Below are positions 28,647 through 33,671 of a stretch of 64,000 nucleotides of DNA, one piece after another. Each line of letters starts with the position of its first letter. The first letter of the stretch is position 1. The notes below the pieces were generated by a model. The model saw only the letters and a program-made list of their open reading frames with translations, was not told where the DNA came from and searched no databases. This DNA comes from Myxococcales bacterium (GTDB lineage Bacteria > Myxococcota_A > Polyangia > Polyangiales > DASUME01). The stretch covers positions 9,120,001-9,184,000 of the forward strand of contig JASGJH010000001.1 of the NCBI GenBank assembly GCA_047601445.1. The letters run 5' to 3'. The position numbers were made by a program, and so were the translations under genes.

Positions 28647-30311
28647 GTGAAGCTGCGCGAAAGCAATCTGGTCAAGCTCGGTCAGCGGCAGTTCGACGTG
28701 CTCATTGTCGGGGGCGGCATCAACGGGGCGGTCAGCGCCGCGGCGCTCAGCGCACAGGGAGCCAAGGTCGCCCTGATCGACCGCGACGACTTCGCGGGCT
28801 TCACCAGCCAGGAAAGCTCCAACCTGGTGTGGGGCGGCATCAAGTACCTGGAGAGCTTCGAGTTCCTGCTCGTCCGCAAACTGTGCCTCTCGCGCAACCG
28901 CTTGCTGCGCGCGTACCCGTCGAGCATCCGCGAGATCCGCTTCTTCACCACGCTCGAAAAGACCTTCCGGAAGAGCCGTTTCTTGGTGTGGTTGGGGGCG
29001 GTCCTCTACTGGTTCATCGGCAATTTTTTCACGCGTCCACCACGTTTGCTGTCGGTGGCCGACATCGATCGCGAGGAGCCGGTGGTGCGCACGCAGGGCA
29101 CCCAGGGGGGCCTCGAGTACTCCGATGCCTACCTGGTCGACAACGACGCGCGCTTCGTCTTCAACTTCGTACGCAGCGCCATCAACTGCGGCGGCATCGT
29201 GGCCAATTACGTCACGTCGCTCGGCGCCACGCGCGAGGCCGACGGGCTCTGGCACTGTCATGCGCGTGACACGGTGGGCGGACGCGAACTCACGATTCGC
29301 GCCAAGATCCTGATCAACGCCTGCGGCCCCTTCGTCGACGCGCACAATCGGTCCACGGGCGTGACCACCCAGCATCGCCACGTGTTCTCGCGCGGCATCC
29401 ACCTGATCGTGAACTCTCTGACGCCGTCGCGGCGCGTGCTGACCTTCTTCGCCGACGACGGCCGCTTGTTCTTCGTGATCCCGATGGGCAACAAGAGCTG
29501 CATCGGCACCACGGACACGCGCGAAGAGCAGTTGCCAGCCCACGTGCACGAGGAAGACCGGCGCTTCGTGCTGGAGAACATCAACAAGCGGCTGAACCTT
29601 CAGACACCGCTCCGCGAAGCCGACGTCCTCGCCGAGCGCTGCGGCGTGCGACCTCTGGTGGTGCAGAACAGCGGCAACGGCGCCGGTGAGGCGGACTGGC
29701 TGACCCTCTCGCGCAAGCACGAGGTGGAGGTCGACCGCGTGCGCTCGCACATCAGCATTTTCGGCGGGAAGCTCACGGATTGCTTGAACGTTGGCGAAGA
29801 GATCGCCGAGCTGGTGCGGCAACTCGGGGTCGCCTTGCCCTATGCCAATCACCGCTGGTACGGCGAGCCGCCGGACGAGGTGCGCGACGAGTTCTTCCAC
29901 CAGGCCCGCCTGATGGACCTGGACGCGATGACCGCGAGCGAGTCGTCCGAGCCACTATCGACGCGTATTTGGCGACGCTACGCGGAGAGCGGTCTGCGCT
30001 TGCTCGAGGACATCCGCGCCGATCCGTCGATGGCCGAGGTGCTGATCCGCGGCACCGAGTACATCCGCGGCGAGCTCTATCACGCCGCGCGACGCGAGAT
30101 GATCACCAAGCTCTCCGACTTCCTGCGGCGGCGCTCCAAGATCGCCTTGATCGCCAACACGGCGACTATCCGAGAAGCTCCAGGGCTGTTCGAGGCCTGT
30201 CGCATCCTCTTCGGGGACGAGGCCGAGTCCAAGTTCATGGAGTACTTTGGCGAGCGGCCAAGCCTCGAGGTGATCCGCGATTCGGTGCGACCTGCGAGTC
30301 CGCTCGGTTAG
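28647..30311 (+). CDS. glpD: FAD-dependent glycerol-3-phosphate dehydrogenase/oxidase
   Basis: DVLIVGGGING, SSNLVWGGIKYLE, INACGPFVD, GTTD, GVRPL, GGKLT. Confidence 0.88.
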   Translation: MKLRESNLVKLGQRQFDVLIVGGGINGAVSAAALSAQGAKVALIDRDDFAGFTSQESSNLVWGGIKYLESFEFLLVRKLCLSRNRLLRAYPSSIREIRFFTTLEKTFRKSRFLVWLGAVLYWFIGNFFTRPPRLLSVADIDREEPVVRTQGTQGGLEYSDAYLVDNDARFVFNFVRSAINCGGIVANYVTSLGATREADGLWHCHARDTVGGRELTIRAKILINACGPFVDAHNRSTGVTTQHRHVFSRGIHLIVNSLTPSRRVLTFFADDGRLFFVIPMGNKSCIGTTDTREEQLPAHVHEEDRRFVLENINKRLNLQTPLREADVLAERCGVRPLVVQNSGNGAGEADWLTLSRKHEVEVDRVRSHISIFGGKLTDCLNVGEEIAELVRQLGVALPYANHRWYGEPPDEVRDEFFHQARLMDLDAMTASESSEPLSTRIWRRYAESGLRLLEDIRADPSMAEVLIRGTEYIRGELYHAARREMITKLSDFLRRRSKIALIANTATIREAPGLFEACRILFGDEAESKFMEYFGERPSLEVIRDSVRPASPLG

Positions 30312-30425
30312 CTGGCCTTTCAAACATGCTTCGAACGACAGTGCGAGATTGCAGCAATGAAAGCAAAACGGGCTTTCTGCGCCGTCCGCTGAACGAAATC
30401 CTCAAGCTTTTCGCGAGCGCGGATG

Positions 30426-30442
30426 TTGGCCTGGTTCTAGCT
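30426..30442 (+). promoter_or_regulatory. Sigma54-type -24/-12 promoter
   Basis: TTGGCCTGGTTCTAGCT: GG 30428-29 and GC 30440-41 separated by exactly 10 nt; no + strand CDS follows. Confidence 0.55.
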
Positions 30443-30454
30443 ATGTAGGCTTCC

Positions 30455-30610
30455 GTGAGTACGAGGTTTGTTCGGGACCCCTAGACGTCCCCCGCCCGAA
30501 CAAGCCCGAGGGCATCGCCGAAAACTCCCCCGTTTTACCCCGCGAAACCTCAAAGTATTCCAAAGCGCGCGTCCCGCCCCCCCTTGGGACGCGCGCTTCC
30601 CCCTATTTTA
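30455..30610 (+). ncRNA. Candidate structured small RNA with C-rich loops
   Basis: Closing helix GAGTAC-GAGGTTT / AAACCTC-GTATTC, inner hairpins, then a perfect 13-bp stem (30563-30598) and TATTTTAT; starts ~13 nt after the sigma54 motif. Confidence 0.5.
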
Positions 30611-30633
30611 TCGGGAGGGCACGCGGCTTCTCT

Positions 30634-30717
30634 ACGGGGAGGTCACGCGACCTCCCCGCCCGTCGCAGCAAAGCTGCGCCGGGGCCCACCCCACTGCGAG
30701 GCTCGCTGCGCTCACGG
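30634..30717 (+). repeat. REP-like palindromic intergenic element, copy 2
   Basis: Matches 7003-7086; hairpins GGGGAGGTC/GACCTCCCC and GCAGC/GCTGC. Confidence 0.85.
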
Positions 30718-30773
30718 TCGTGTTCGTTTCGGGCCTATTGTGGGGGGGCCCGCGCCCTCCCGTTGACTCCCAG

Positions 30774-33671
30774 TTAGCGCAGGAGCTCGAGCAAATCGCT
30801 GCGCGTGATGCCCGCCGCTGCCTCGGCGCCGTCGGTGGCCACGGCGGAGAGTGCGCGCTTCTTCTCCTGCAGGACCAGGATGCGCTCCTCGACGCTGTCC
30901 TTGGCCACCAAGCGATGCACGAGCACCGGGCGGTCCTGGCCGATGCGGTGCGCGCGGTCGGCAGCCTGATCTTCGGCGGCGGGGTTCCACCAGGGATCCA
31001 TCAGGAACACGTGGTCGGCTGCGGTCAGGTTGAGGCCCACGCCACCGGCCTTCAGCGAGAGCAGCATCACACCCACGCCGGGGTCGTCCTGGAACTCTCT
31101 CACGACCGCAGCGCGGTCGGCCGTGGAGCCGTCGAGGCGCACGAAGCGCACGTTGCGACCCTCTAGGTGCGGCTCCACCAGGTCCAGCAGGCTCGTCCAC
31201 TGTGAAAACACCAGCGCCTTGTGCCCCTCGCTGAGGGCCTCGTCGAGGGTCTCTAGCAGCACGTCCAACTTGCTCGAGCGGGCCGCCGACTGGCCGGGCA
31301 AGAGGGCGCGATGACAGCAGGCTTGCCGCAGCCGCAACAGCGCCTCGAGCGCTGCCAGCACACTGCCGCCGCTCTCGAGCTGCTCCACCACGTCCTTCTG
31401 GGTCGCCGCACGCACGCTCTCGTAGAGGGCCCGCTCGTCGTCGTCCAAAGTGCAATGCAACACCACATCCGTGCGCGGCGGGAGCTCTTTCACCACGTCG
31501 CGCTTCAAGCGCCTCAGTACGAACGGCTTGATGCGTGCGCGTAGTCGCCTGGCCGCTTCGCGGTCGCCCTCGGCGATGGGATTGCCGTAGGCGGCCTCGA
31601 AGTCCGCGCGCCCTCCCAACAGACCGCGGTTGAGGAAATGGAACAGACTCCACAGATCGGTGAGCCGATTCTCTACCGGGGTACCGGTGAGCGCGATGCG
31701 TCGCTCGGCCGGCAGCTCGTAGGCCGCGCGGGCCACCTGACTGTCGGGGTTCTTGATGGTCTGAGCTTCGTCGAGGATCAGCGTGGCCCAGTGCTTCTGG
31801 CTCAGCTGCGCCGCGTCCATGCGCATGATCGCGTAGGTCGTGATGGTGACGTCTGCCGTGACGTCGAGCGCGCGTTGCGGCCCGTGATAGGTGCACACCT
31901 TGAGCTCGGGCCTGAAGCGCGCGATCTCGGCCGCCCAGTTGAACACCACGCTGGCTGGACAGACCACGAGCGCCGGCGGCCTGAGCGCGCACAGTGCCTG
32001 CAGGGTTTTGCCCAAGCCCATGTCGTCGGCGAGCAGGGCCCCCATCTCCGCTTCGCCCAGGAAACGCAGCCAACGGTAGCCCGCGAGCTGATAGCTGCGC
32101 AGGTCGGCACGCACGCCCTCCGGCAGCGCAATCTCCGGGATGCCCGAGAAGTCTTCGCTCAGCGTGCGCAGACGCGCGAGCTCCGGCGGGGCAGGGTAAT
32201 CGAGTGCCGAGCACAGCCGCGCGAGATCCACCAGGGCCGCTGCGGGCAGGGAGTCGTCGCGCTCGTCCTTTGCAGCCAACAGGTCGCGCACCAGGTGCCC
32301 GTGCAACGCGAGGAAGTCTCGCGGCAGCGGTGCGAAGCCGCCGCCCTCGAGGGCGACCAGGGGGGAGCCATGCTGGAAGGCTGCCACCACGGCTTCTGCG
32401 GATGCGCGCTCGCCCTTCTCGGTGCGGAATGACAGCGCGAAGCTGTGACCTTCCACCGAGAGCTCGGGCGTGAGCGCCCCGCGTAACGAGAAGTTCTCGA
32501 GGCCGCTGCCGGAGATCTGCACGTCGTCCAGGGCACGCACGCGATCGGCCAGGCGTAGCGCTGCTTCACCCTCGAGTCGCTTGCGCCGGCCCACCTCGAG
32601 ACCGAGCTTCGTCTCCACCAACTTGCTCAGTCGGAGCTCCGCGTCCACGTCACGCAGCGCCACCGGGCCGCCCAGATAGGTGAGCTTGCCGCCGTCCACG
32701 CGCGCGCAGGGCGGATCGCCATAGACGATGGTCGGCAATACCTCGAGCACGCCTGCCATGATGTCCGCCGACAGCGAGAGCCGTGCGGGCAGTGCTTGGG
32801 CACCTGGCAGGAGCTCTTCCGGCACCTCCACCGGGATGCGCTCGCGCAATGCGGGGATCACGCGTCCCACGAGATCGGCCACGTCGTTCAAGGGGACGTG
32901 GCGTCCACGCTTGAGCGCCGCGAGATCGGTCTCGGACAGCTGCGGTTCACGCACCAAACACAGCTTGTCGTCGAGCACGGCAACGCCACTCTCGAAGCTC
33001 CGTGTCAGGCGCTTGTTCTCACGCGCGATCAGGCGAAAGCCCTCACGGTCGCGCTCCACGCGCGCCACCACCGAGTCCACCGGCTCACCCAGCGCGATGG
33101 GCTTGCCTTCGAAGGTCACGTCTTCGCATTCGGCGAGCCAGCCGAGCAGCTTGGGCACGAAAGCTCGCGGCACAGGCCCCTCGCGCATGTTGCCGATCAG
33201 CAGATCGATCTCCACGTCGGCGCGGCTCGTGCTGATCTGGGCCGCTTCGCCCTTCTGACGCTCTTCGATCAAGCGCGTGCTCAGCTTCTTGCGTTCGTCG
33301 CCTTGCTTCACCATGCGCGTCATGAACAGCTGGTCGCCCTTGGCGCTGAACTCGTAGCCCAGCGTGGCGGCCGGGCCGCGCACGCCGAGCAGGTCCGTGC
33401 CCTCTTTCTCTGCCTGCGCCAGCAGGATGACCGCCGCCGCTGCGTGCTGGCAGACCGGCTCCTGCGAGGGACACTCGCACGACCACTCGGAGTGCTCGGG
33501 CGACAGCGTCACGAGCGGCGAGGTCATGCCGCCCTTGGTCGCGATGCGCACTTCCAGGGAGCCGTCGCGTGCACGCTTGCCCGAGAGCGTCCCGCTGCGT
33601 GCCTGGGTGACGGCGCGGGACCAGGTGGCCGGTGAGCATTCCTCACGAATCGCTTCCAACAGTTTCTGCAC
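30774..33671 (-). CDS. SWIM zinc finger-SNF2/SWI2 family helicase
   Basis: CECPSQEPVCQH SWIM motif; LADDMGLGKT, DEAQTIKN, TGTPVEN, LKAGGVGLNLT, QAADRAHRIGQ. Confidence 0.93.
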   Translation of the reverse strand: MQKLLEAIREECSPATWSRAVTQARSGTLSGKRARDGSLEVRIATKGGMTSPLVTLSPEHSEWSCECPSQEPVCQHAAAAVILLAQAEKEGTDLLGVRGPAATLGYEFSAKGDQLFMTRMVKQGDERKKLSTRLIEERQKGEAAQISTSRADVEIDLLIGNMREGPVPRAFVPKLLGWLAECEDVTFEGKPIALGEPVDSVVARVERDREGFRLIARENKRLTRSFESGVAVLDDKLCLVREPQLSETDLAALKRGRHVPLNDVADLVGRVIPALRERIPVEVPEELLPGAQALPARLSLSADIMAGVLEVLPTIVYGDPPCARVDGGKLTYLGGPVALRDVDAELRLSKLVETKLGLEVGRRKRLEGEAALRLADRVRALDDVQISGSGLENFSLRGALTPELSVEGHSFALSFRTEKGERASAEAVVAAFQHGSPLVALEGGGFAPLPRDFLALHGHLVRDLLAAKDERDDSLPAAALVDLARLCSALDYPAPPELARLRTLSEDFSGIPEIALPEGVRADLRSYQLAGYRWLRFLGEAEMGALLADDMGLGKTLQALCALRPPALVVCPASVVFNWAAEIARFRPELKVCTYHGPQRALDVTADVTITTYAIMRMDAAQLSQKHWATLILDEAQTIKNPDSQVARAAYELPAERRIALTGTPVENRLTDLWSLFHFLNRGLLGGRADFEAAYGNPIAEGDREAARRLRARIKPFVLRRLKRDVVKELPPRTDVVLHCTLDDDERALYESVRAATQKDVVEQLESGGSVLAALEALLRLRQACCHRALLPGQSAARSSKLDVLLETLDEALSEGHKALVFSQWTSLLDLVEPHLEGRNVRFVRLDGSTADRAAVVREFQDDPGVGVMLLSLKAGGVGLNLTAADHVFLMDPWWNPAAEDQAADRAHRIGQDRPVLVHRLVAKDSVEERILVLQEKKRALSAVATDGAEAAAGITRSDLLELLR

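Follow-up and report, generated by a model that had tools for sequence, protein, structure and literature searches.

A candidate sigma-54-dependent small RNA with C-rich loops behind glpD and its putative relatives in the Polyangiales

The element between glpD and an SNF2 helicase gene of a soil Myxococcales bacterium (genome G000) is, to judge from its sequence and its relatives, very probably a conserved and uncatalogued gene for a sigma-54-dependent RNA with C-rich loops. It lies in a window of 64,000 nucleotides (the whole stretch of DNA that was analysed), for which 401 genomes of the order, including the ten of the genus, were used for comparison, and it would be a stand-alone regulatory RNA gene, one of three sisters in G000 and part of a family spread over the order Polyangiales. 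The stand-alone sigma-54 small RNA gene of the original prediction finds support in a promoter, fold, loops and terminator that are conserved in homologues, in sisters at unrelated loci, and in the presence of rpoN in G000; that the C-loop RNAs are transcribed and act in trans is what we infer.

The gap (30312-30773) separates a glycerol-3-phosphate dehydrogenase-like glpD gene (+ strand, ending at 30311) from the convergent SNF2 helicase gene (- strand, ending at 30774), and it holds all the motifs that had been described for it. Among them is a GG-N10-GC motif (GG at 30428-29, GC at 30440-41, ten bases between), which forms part of a putative sigma-54 -24/-12 promoter (30426..30442, + strand; predicted start near 30453) and which, as had been noted, has no + strand coding gene behind it in the gap. 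This copy of the promoter is imperfect (TGGCCT..TAGCT), being off consensus at three positions. The predicted small RNA (30453..30611, + strand, about 155 nt, type P1) has three C-rich hairpin loops and six runs of at least four C that are mostly unpaired, and the longest closed ORF within it comprises nine codons. Its supposed unannotated status agrees with an Rfam scan, which gave no threshold match at the locus, in homologues or sisters, or in 20 relatives from the order. On the 3' side of the RNA, an REP-like palindromic repeat of about 83 nt (30634-30716) sits inside an inverted repeat (about 30612-30764); it has 171 matches in G000, 129 of them near full length, occurs also in G002, G003, G005, G006, and G007, and is missing at the glpD locus of G007.

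A folding energy of -63.3 kcal/mol (z -7.1) was computed for the segment 30453-30612, and none of 200 dinucleotide shuffles was equally good. In the predicted structure a closing helix (30457..30560, + strand; 30457-62/30555-60, pair probability 0.93-0.95) encloses hairpin A (30465..30506, + strand), with 12 bp (30465-76/30495-506, pair probability 0.85-1.0) and an 18-nt loop containing two C-runs, and hairpin B (30508..30551, + strand; pair probability 0.95-1.0), with an apical UCCCCC loop (30526-31) and a C-rich 3' bulge (30537-41). The terminator-like hairpin (30563..30611, + strand) consists of the perfect 13-bp stem with a C-rich loop that had been foreseen (30563-75/30586-98, C7 loop); C5 and a brief U-rich tail come next, and this tail is weak in the window copy and reaches U4-U5 in G004, G008, and G009, and a simple terminator scan called no terminator at the window RNA. 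The several exposed C-rich loops postulated earlier are likewise present, with C-runs that are accessible at an unpaired probability of 0.84-1.0. The multibranch fold proposed at the same time holds in part: the closing helix and the pairings 30470-76/30495-501 and 30521-25/30532-36 were recovered, whereas a helix 30463-69/30545-51 and a GCCC-GA-GGGC hairpin, the latter with a 2-base loop, have pair probabilities of about 0.02 each and were given up. In an alignment of three sequences, that helix keeps 75% of cells paired versus 92% for the extended hairpin A.

The RNA is found behind glpD in five of the ten genus genomes (G000, G007, G004, G008, and G009). The glpD gene itself is present in all ten, with nine readable downstream stretches, since the contig of G001 ends inside the gene; in G002, G003, G005, and G006 the RNA lies neither behind glpD nor behind their SNF2 gene. 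In all five glpD-linked RNAs, z lies between -6.3 and -10.0 and the hairpin loops, three in each, are C-rich; a canonical promoter (TGGCAC-N5-TCGCT/TGGCT) stands at the same place in G004, G008, and G009. A BLASTN search with the element in the 401 order genomes gave full-length matches only in G000 and G007 (86%); these two genomes share 85.9% identity over the element and 82.5% and 83.7% over the flanking genes, and the remainder of the gap is unalignable. A model of the long form (R2) matched only in G000, G004, G007, and G008 among 41 genomes. Four soil metagenome runs yielded one contig each matching within 30409-30604 at about 93-96% identity (5-13 differences over 111-196 bases), and a metagenome scan via glpD kept 80 of 567 loci, none with the RNA.

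Fold, loops, and terminator are conserved in these homologues, and none of the computable grounds for rejecting the original prediction applied. Across the three alignable long-form sequences, 95.5% of cells pair and four pairs are changed on both sides, a compensatory count that was as high in 9 of 500 shuffles; slid controls were 28-50% paired. This covariation, drawn from three sequences, is supportive but thin. The closing helix has 100% of cells paired in the three aligned sequences, with one A-U/G-U/G-C series, and is not formed in the folds of the G008 and G009 homologues; hairpin A lies in a 43-nt block that is invariant in G007 and shows one compensatory pair in G004; the hairpin B stems of G007 and G004 have another sequence with the pairing re-formed; and the terminator stem is 100% paired with two compensatory pairs. 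It is most improbable that the structure is no independent gene and merely represents a glpD 3' UTR or terminator, a bidirectional terminator or a decayed repeat. The location on the same strand as glpD between convergent genes, the adjoining REP-like repeat and the three departures of the promoter from consensus would fit such an origin. However, the RNA segment is single-copy in the genome and the multicopy repeat, of which it might have been a part, begins 3' of it; G007 has the RNA without an adjoining repeat; glpD and SNF2 are adjacent without the RNA in the metagenome locus L073; and the sisters follow unrelated genes and have promoter and enhancer in every case.

These sisters emerged from a scan of G000 for a sigma-54 site combined with C-loop hairpins and a U-tail, which gave nine candidates, three of them clean: the window RNA and two genes of about 90 nt (G000:C1:6132626-6132750 and G000:C1:5818973-5819092, both - strand), each with two hairpins, a sigma-54 promoter, and C-loops. 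A pattern built from the two sisters, in which no C-run was required, matched 13 genes in nine of the ten genus genomes and none in the 391 other order genomes (four matches in the reversed control), and all 13 have C-runs in both loops. Throughout a set of 18 RNAs, every one of the 41 hairpin loops contains a run of at least four C. An RNA-only model of the short form, built from seven short sisters, added 12 genus matches of E<1e-3, each of them preceded by a sigma-54 promoter at a distance of 21-32 nt; among its weaker matches, two from the genus lacked such a promoter and one of six non-genus matches (G020) had one. Two to four copies are present in each genus genome; some stand in tandem, and the genes that they adjoin are unrelated (lytic transglycosylase, ruvB, sspB, oxidoreductase). 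Short-form alignments made with MAFFT contained 0 and 4 doubly changed pairs. The long form receives only weak scores from the short-form model (E 0.12-0.8), and the kinship of the two forms therefore rests on the shared promoter, enhancer, and architecture.

A loose sigma-54+C6 pattern applied to 61 genomes was unspecific alone, with reversed-pattern controls of similar size, so that only follow-up folding separates signal. The order survey comprised 98 distinct non-genus sites among the matches listed, plus two G004 sites. C-loop hairpins (one or more) with a tail were formed at 27 of these 98 listed sites, two of the 27 being doubtful, and 17 of the 98, in nine families, have at least two C-loop hairpins and a U-tail; as background, this arrangement was seen at 7 of 2426 C6 runs of the G000 genome, the two sisters included. 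Three-loop forms resembling the window RNA occur, among the matches listed, in G053, G059, G011, and G032. One- to three-hairpin forms are found across the order, the stems diverge freely in sequence, C-run length varies from 5 to 12, and loop number ranges from one to three or more. No description of such RNAs in Polyangiales was found in the literature searched, whose coverage excludes most subscription papers.

A terminator-only pattern run over all GTDB species returned 26 stretches, the promoter-bearing ones being genus-type genes (in records mostly titled Polyangiales), a G020-type gene, and one Calditrichaceae site. The latter (L216, 354-430), outside the myxobacteria, combines a sigma-54-like promoter with a C5-loop terminator hairpin within 50 nt; it may have arisen by chance or may represent a tiny RNA of analogous kind. 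A conserved C-loop terminator behind a small gene (family f7) was also seen in G045 and G035 (L184 and L186), with no sigma-54 promoter.

Upstream of the window promoter, 78 bases before its TGG, lies an exact copy of a putative activator (enhancer) palindrome, TTKCR-N4-YGMAA (30349..30362, no strand assigned), and a further half-site occupies 30318-30322. Half-sites (TGMAA/TTKCA) are phased 55-110 bases upstream, at least two of them in 17 of 18 genus promoters. At least two were found at 3 of 66 strict sigma-54 sites of G000, two of the three being the sisters, and half-sites occurred at 9 of 230 looser intergenic sigma-54 sites, three of which are family RNAs. Among the 27 exact intergenic palindromes in G000, the window site is the only one paired with a TGG-type sigma-54 promoter. 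The consensus was drawn partly from the window site, and the tests on the 18 genus promoters and the 27 G000 sites are therefore partly circular. This is less so for the RNAs outside the genus, where 12 of 24 accepted RNAs versus 0 of 59 rejected sites have half-sites (Fisher 3e-8, with kin that are not independent; sites among the matches listed, 15 partial or doubtful rows excluded), and for the activator loci described below.

Exactly one of the 27 palindromes stands directly behind an NtrC-type gene. This conserved gene (G000:C1:2163700-2165094, corresponding to L363:3201-4595, - strand) is followed by the palindrome, then a CGG-type sigma-54 promoter, and then a gene for a 134-aa single-domain response regulator. 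A single strong match to it was obtained in each of 41 order genomes out of 61. For the best 30 of the 41, of which 29 were long enough, an exact palindrome follows the gene at 10 of the 29 loci, compared with 8 out of 1500 G000 genes picked at random; if one mismatch is allowed, the figures are 17 of 29 (again for the best 30 of 41) and 98 of 1500. In 5 of the 29 loci (G011, G033, G039, G051, and G055) the candidate activator gene is directly followed by a sigma-54 promoter with a C-loop hairpin RNA, and a sixth case, in G005, is doubtful. Palindrome enrichment and the C-loop RNAs directly behind it make this gene the best candidate for the activator, with binding that we infer from sequence. 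No kinase gene precedes it in G000, its homologues carry only generic names, no activator or kinase gene is near the three G000 RNA copies (49 activators are listed in this genome), and neither an activator nor a kinase gene lies directly upstream of the RNA in the 20 order loci.

Another activator, at G000:C1:5072785, was dropped as RNA activator since it precedes its own operon; in this region (G000:C1:5072785-5078436) an REP copy comes after the sigma-54 activator gene, then direct-repeat sites in tandem and a sigma-54 promoter that precedes a three-gene operon. A conserved non-coding motif with TGCAA/TTTCA half-sites was further observed at G000:C1:184976-185448 (also in L200, L202, and L203), upstream of a Crp/Fnr-family gene behind sspB. 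A family RNA occupies this sspB-Crp/Fnr gap in G001, G005, and G006, not in G000, and in G021 one is located behind an sspB-like gene.

In the proposed mode of action, the NtrC-type enhancer-binding protein would bind the palindrome and fire the sigma-54 promoters of all copies together. Comparison of the RNAs shows rigid stems of G+C and, as the only single-stranded feature that is conserved, C-runs, and it is modestly probable, by analogy, that the loops pair with G-rich mRNA at ribosome-binding sites. Such pairing would engage G-runs in several mRNAs without an RNA chaperone and would lower their translation, as for the 6C RNA, which binds G-rich ribosome-binding sites through C-loops in a chaperone-free manner (PMC6486639). 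Hfq, CsrA, and ProQ were not found in G000 (98.7% complete): there was no match to PF17209 (Hfq), a profile that, as a control, matched in 5 of 14 genomes, and none to PF02599 (CsrA). Because the loops are C-runs and not CCUCC, the likely partners would be G-run ribosome-binding sites and not the ordinary GGAGG. A G6 run at -20..-3 precedes 43 of 6977 crudely called G000 genes versus 18 in a control window (2.4-fold), an enrichment that may reflect ordinary Shine-Dalgarno composition. The one gene examined as a target was the best candidate, a WS/DGAT gene whose leader contains G8; its G6 is kept in G007 and not in the best match of G004.

A real sigma-54 RNA might also work by another route, through pairing with G-runs that lie elsewhere than in ribosome-binding sites (in coding regions, G-rich structures, or other RNAs) or as a processed precursor in the manner of Pxr-L/Pxr-S. 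We regard this as quite improbable: nothing in the sequence speaks positively for it and the 6C precedent favours ribosome-binding sites, even though pure C-runs fit the usual GGAGG poorly, the 16S tail of G000 is the standard CCUCC, and Pxr is processed stepwise by RNase D (PMC10217877). Unlikely, to a lesser degree, is the explanation that the RNAs are redundant decoys titrating a poly(C)-binding protein, e.g., one with an RRM or KH domain, as Csr/Rsm RNAs titrate CsrA. The variable loop number and C-run length, the freely diverging stems, the two to four copies per genome under one proposed activator, and the five to seven C-runs of the long form, including bulges and linker, would all suit a decoy, and RRM-domain matches occur at five places in the genome, along with two of the KhpA/B type. 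Features of Csr/Rsm decoys are nevertheless lacking, with no unpaired GGA in any of the 18 RNAs and no CsrA found in G000, and there is no RNA-binding gene among the neighbours checked; we know of no bacterial poly(C)-specific repressor. Moreover, a single C-to-A change within Pxr's first loop is reported to abolish its function (PMC5684412), which fits a pairing seed at least as well.

For pairing through the loops, the closest parallels are the 6C RNA of Actinobacteria (RF01066) and Scr3202 of Streptomyces (RF02833), in which, as here, two hairpins bear C6-type loops, the second hairpin is the terminator, and the high-GC host has neither Hfq nor ProQ. The 6C pattern of at least two hairpins with loops of about six C recurs in the family, in which 41 of 41 loops have four or more C. 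The two models gave 21.2 bits at the locus (6C) and up to 31.8 and 33.1 bits in the 20 relatives, below their cut-offs of 47 and 52. Unlike 6C and Scr3202, the family belongs to another phylum, is under putative sigma-54/enhancer control, and is dispersed in multiple copies. Several redundant sigma-54 small RNAs under one enhancer-binding protein, as proposed here, are known from Qrr of Vibrio. The half-sites of the LuxO box, which reads TTGCA-W3-TGCAA (PMC10328515), equal those of the family, with a spacer of 3 instead of 4. In contrast to Qrr, no Hfq was found in G000, C-loops take the place of the Qrr seed, and there is no sequence similarity. Modular hairpins with C-rich loops in multiple copies also characterize Cuckoo/CcsR and alpha-r7 of Alphaproteobacteria (RF02791 and RF02342), whose models reached sub-threshold 19.2 and 27.6 bits in the relatives; the loops of those RNAs are CCUCCUCCC, whereas those of the family are C-runs. 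Scr3202, 6C, ar7, and CcsR1 were the nearest Rfam models for the 20 order relatives, all below cut-off. Separately, three Aurantimonadaceae-type records (L235, L239, and L241) contain multi-hairpin RNAs with C/CU-rich loops and a similar terminator and no sigma-54 promoter, which are probably cuckoo-like.

Pxr of Myxococcus xanthus (RF01812), with which the original prediction had drawn an apt comparison given that the first Pxr loop is itself C-rich, shares with the family a myxobacterial host, a sigma-54 promoter, an NtrC-type activator (a candidate here), and three stem-loops. In its first hairpin the stem is bulged on the left side and the loop is C-rich, as deduced from a primer for positions 13-33 (PMC5568312). 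Such a bulged C-loop hairpin recurs throughout the family; in the window RNA it is hairpin B that has the bulge, hairpin A having none. The pxr gene lies directly behind pxrR, just as five family RNAs lie directly behind the NtrC-type gene; the window copy is not beside an activator. At the glpD/SNF2 locus and the 20 order loci the RNA is not behind pxrK-pxrR, and the NtrC-type gene precedes a family RNA in the said 5 of 29 activator loci. The two also differ in that all loops of the family are C-rich, as against non-C loops for SL2 and SL3 in the Pxr consensus, and in the two to four dispersed copies per genome, unlike Pxr. Neither the SL2 tetraloop hairpin nor the SL3 core of Pxr was seen in folds of the window RNA, homologues, or sisters. 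RF01812 had no match at the locus or sisters, with a genome best of 16.6 bits elsewhere (cut-off 80) and, in one of the 20 relatives, a wrong-strand score of 20.3 bits. A search for the pxr locus gave none in 121 phylum genomes by model, one non-matching hit in 301 by primer motif, and none in viral contigs, and, having no positive control, is silent on the range of Pxr.

A tentative proposal, to which we give slightly less than an even chance, is that the RNA family represents the branch of the Pxr system found in Polyangiales: both the C-loop hairpin and the NtrC-type activator would predate the split from Myxococcus, the activator would be the PxrR/SpdR orthologue, and the single gene would have multiplied in Polyangiales into a Qrr-like set of two to four dispersed, chaperone-free poly-C-loop RNAs that together make up a single regulatory layer. 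Pxr is reported from Cystobacterineae only and described as young, and it acts as the gatekeeper of fruiting-body development with no direct target named in the literature consulted, which describes no other myxobacterial small RNA having a clear genetic role. If the proposal is true, Pxr would not be a recent invention of the Cystobacterineae, and its targets could be searched for as G-runs conserved in both groups. Since pairing through C-loops is already known as a mechanism, the family widens a known kind of RNA and founds no new one. An uncatalogued order-wide family with a Pxr-type promoter, a C-loop module, and a candidate shared activator would make seed, enhancer, and targets accessible to inference from dozens of diverged sequences, and it suggests how Hfq-less, GC-rich Gram-negative bacteria may run small-RNA control.
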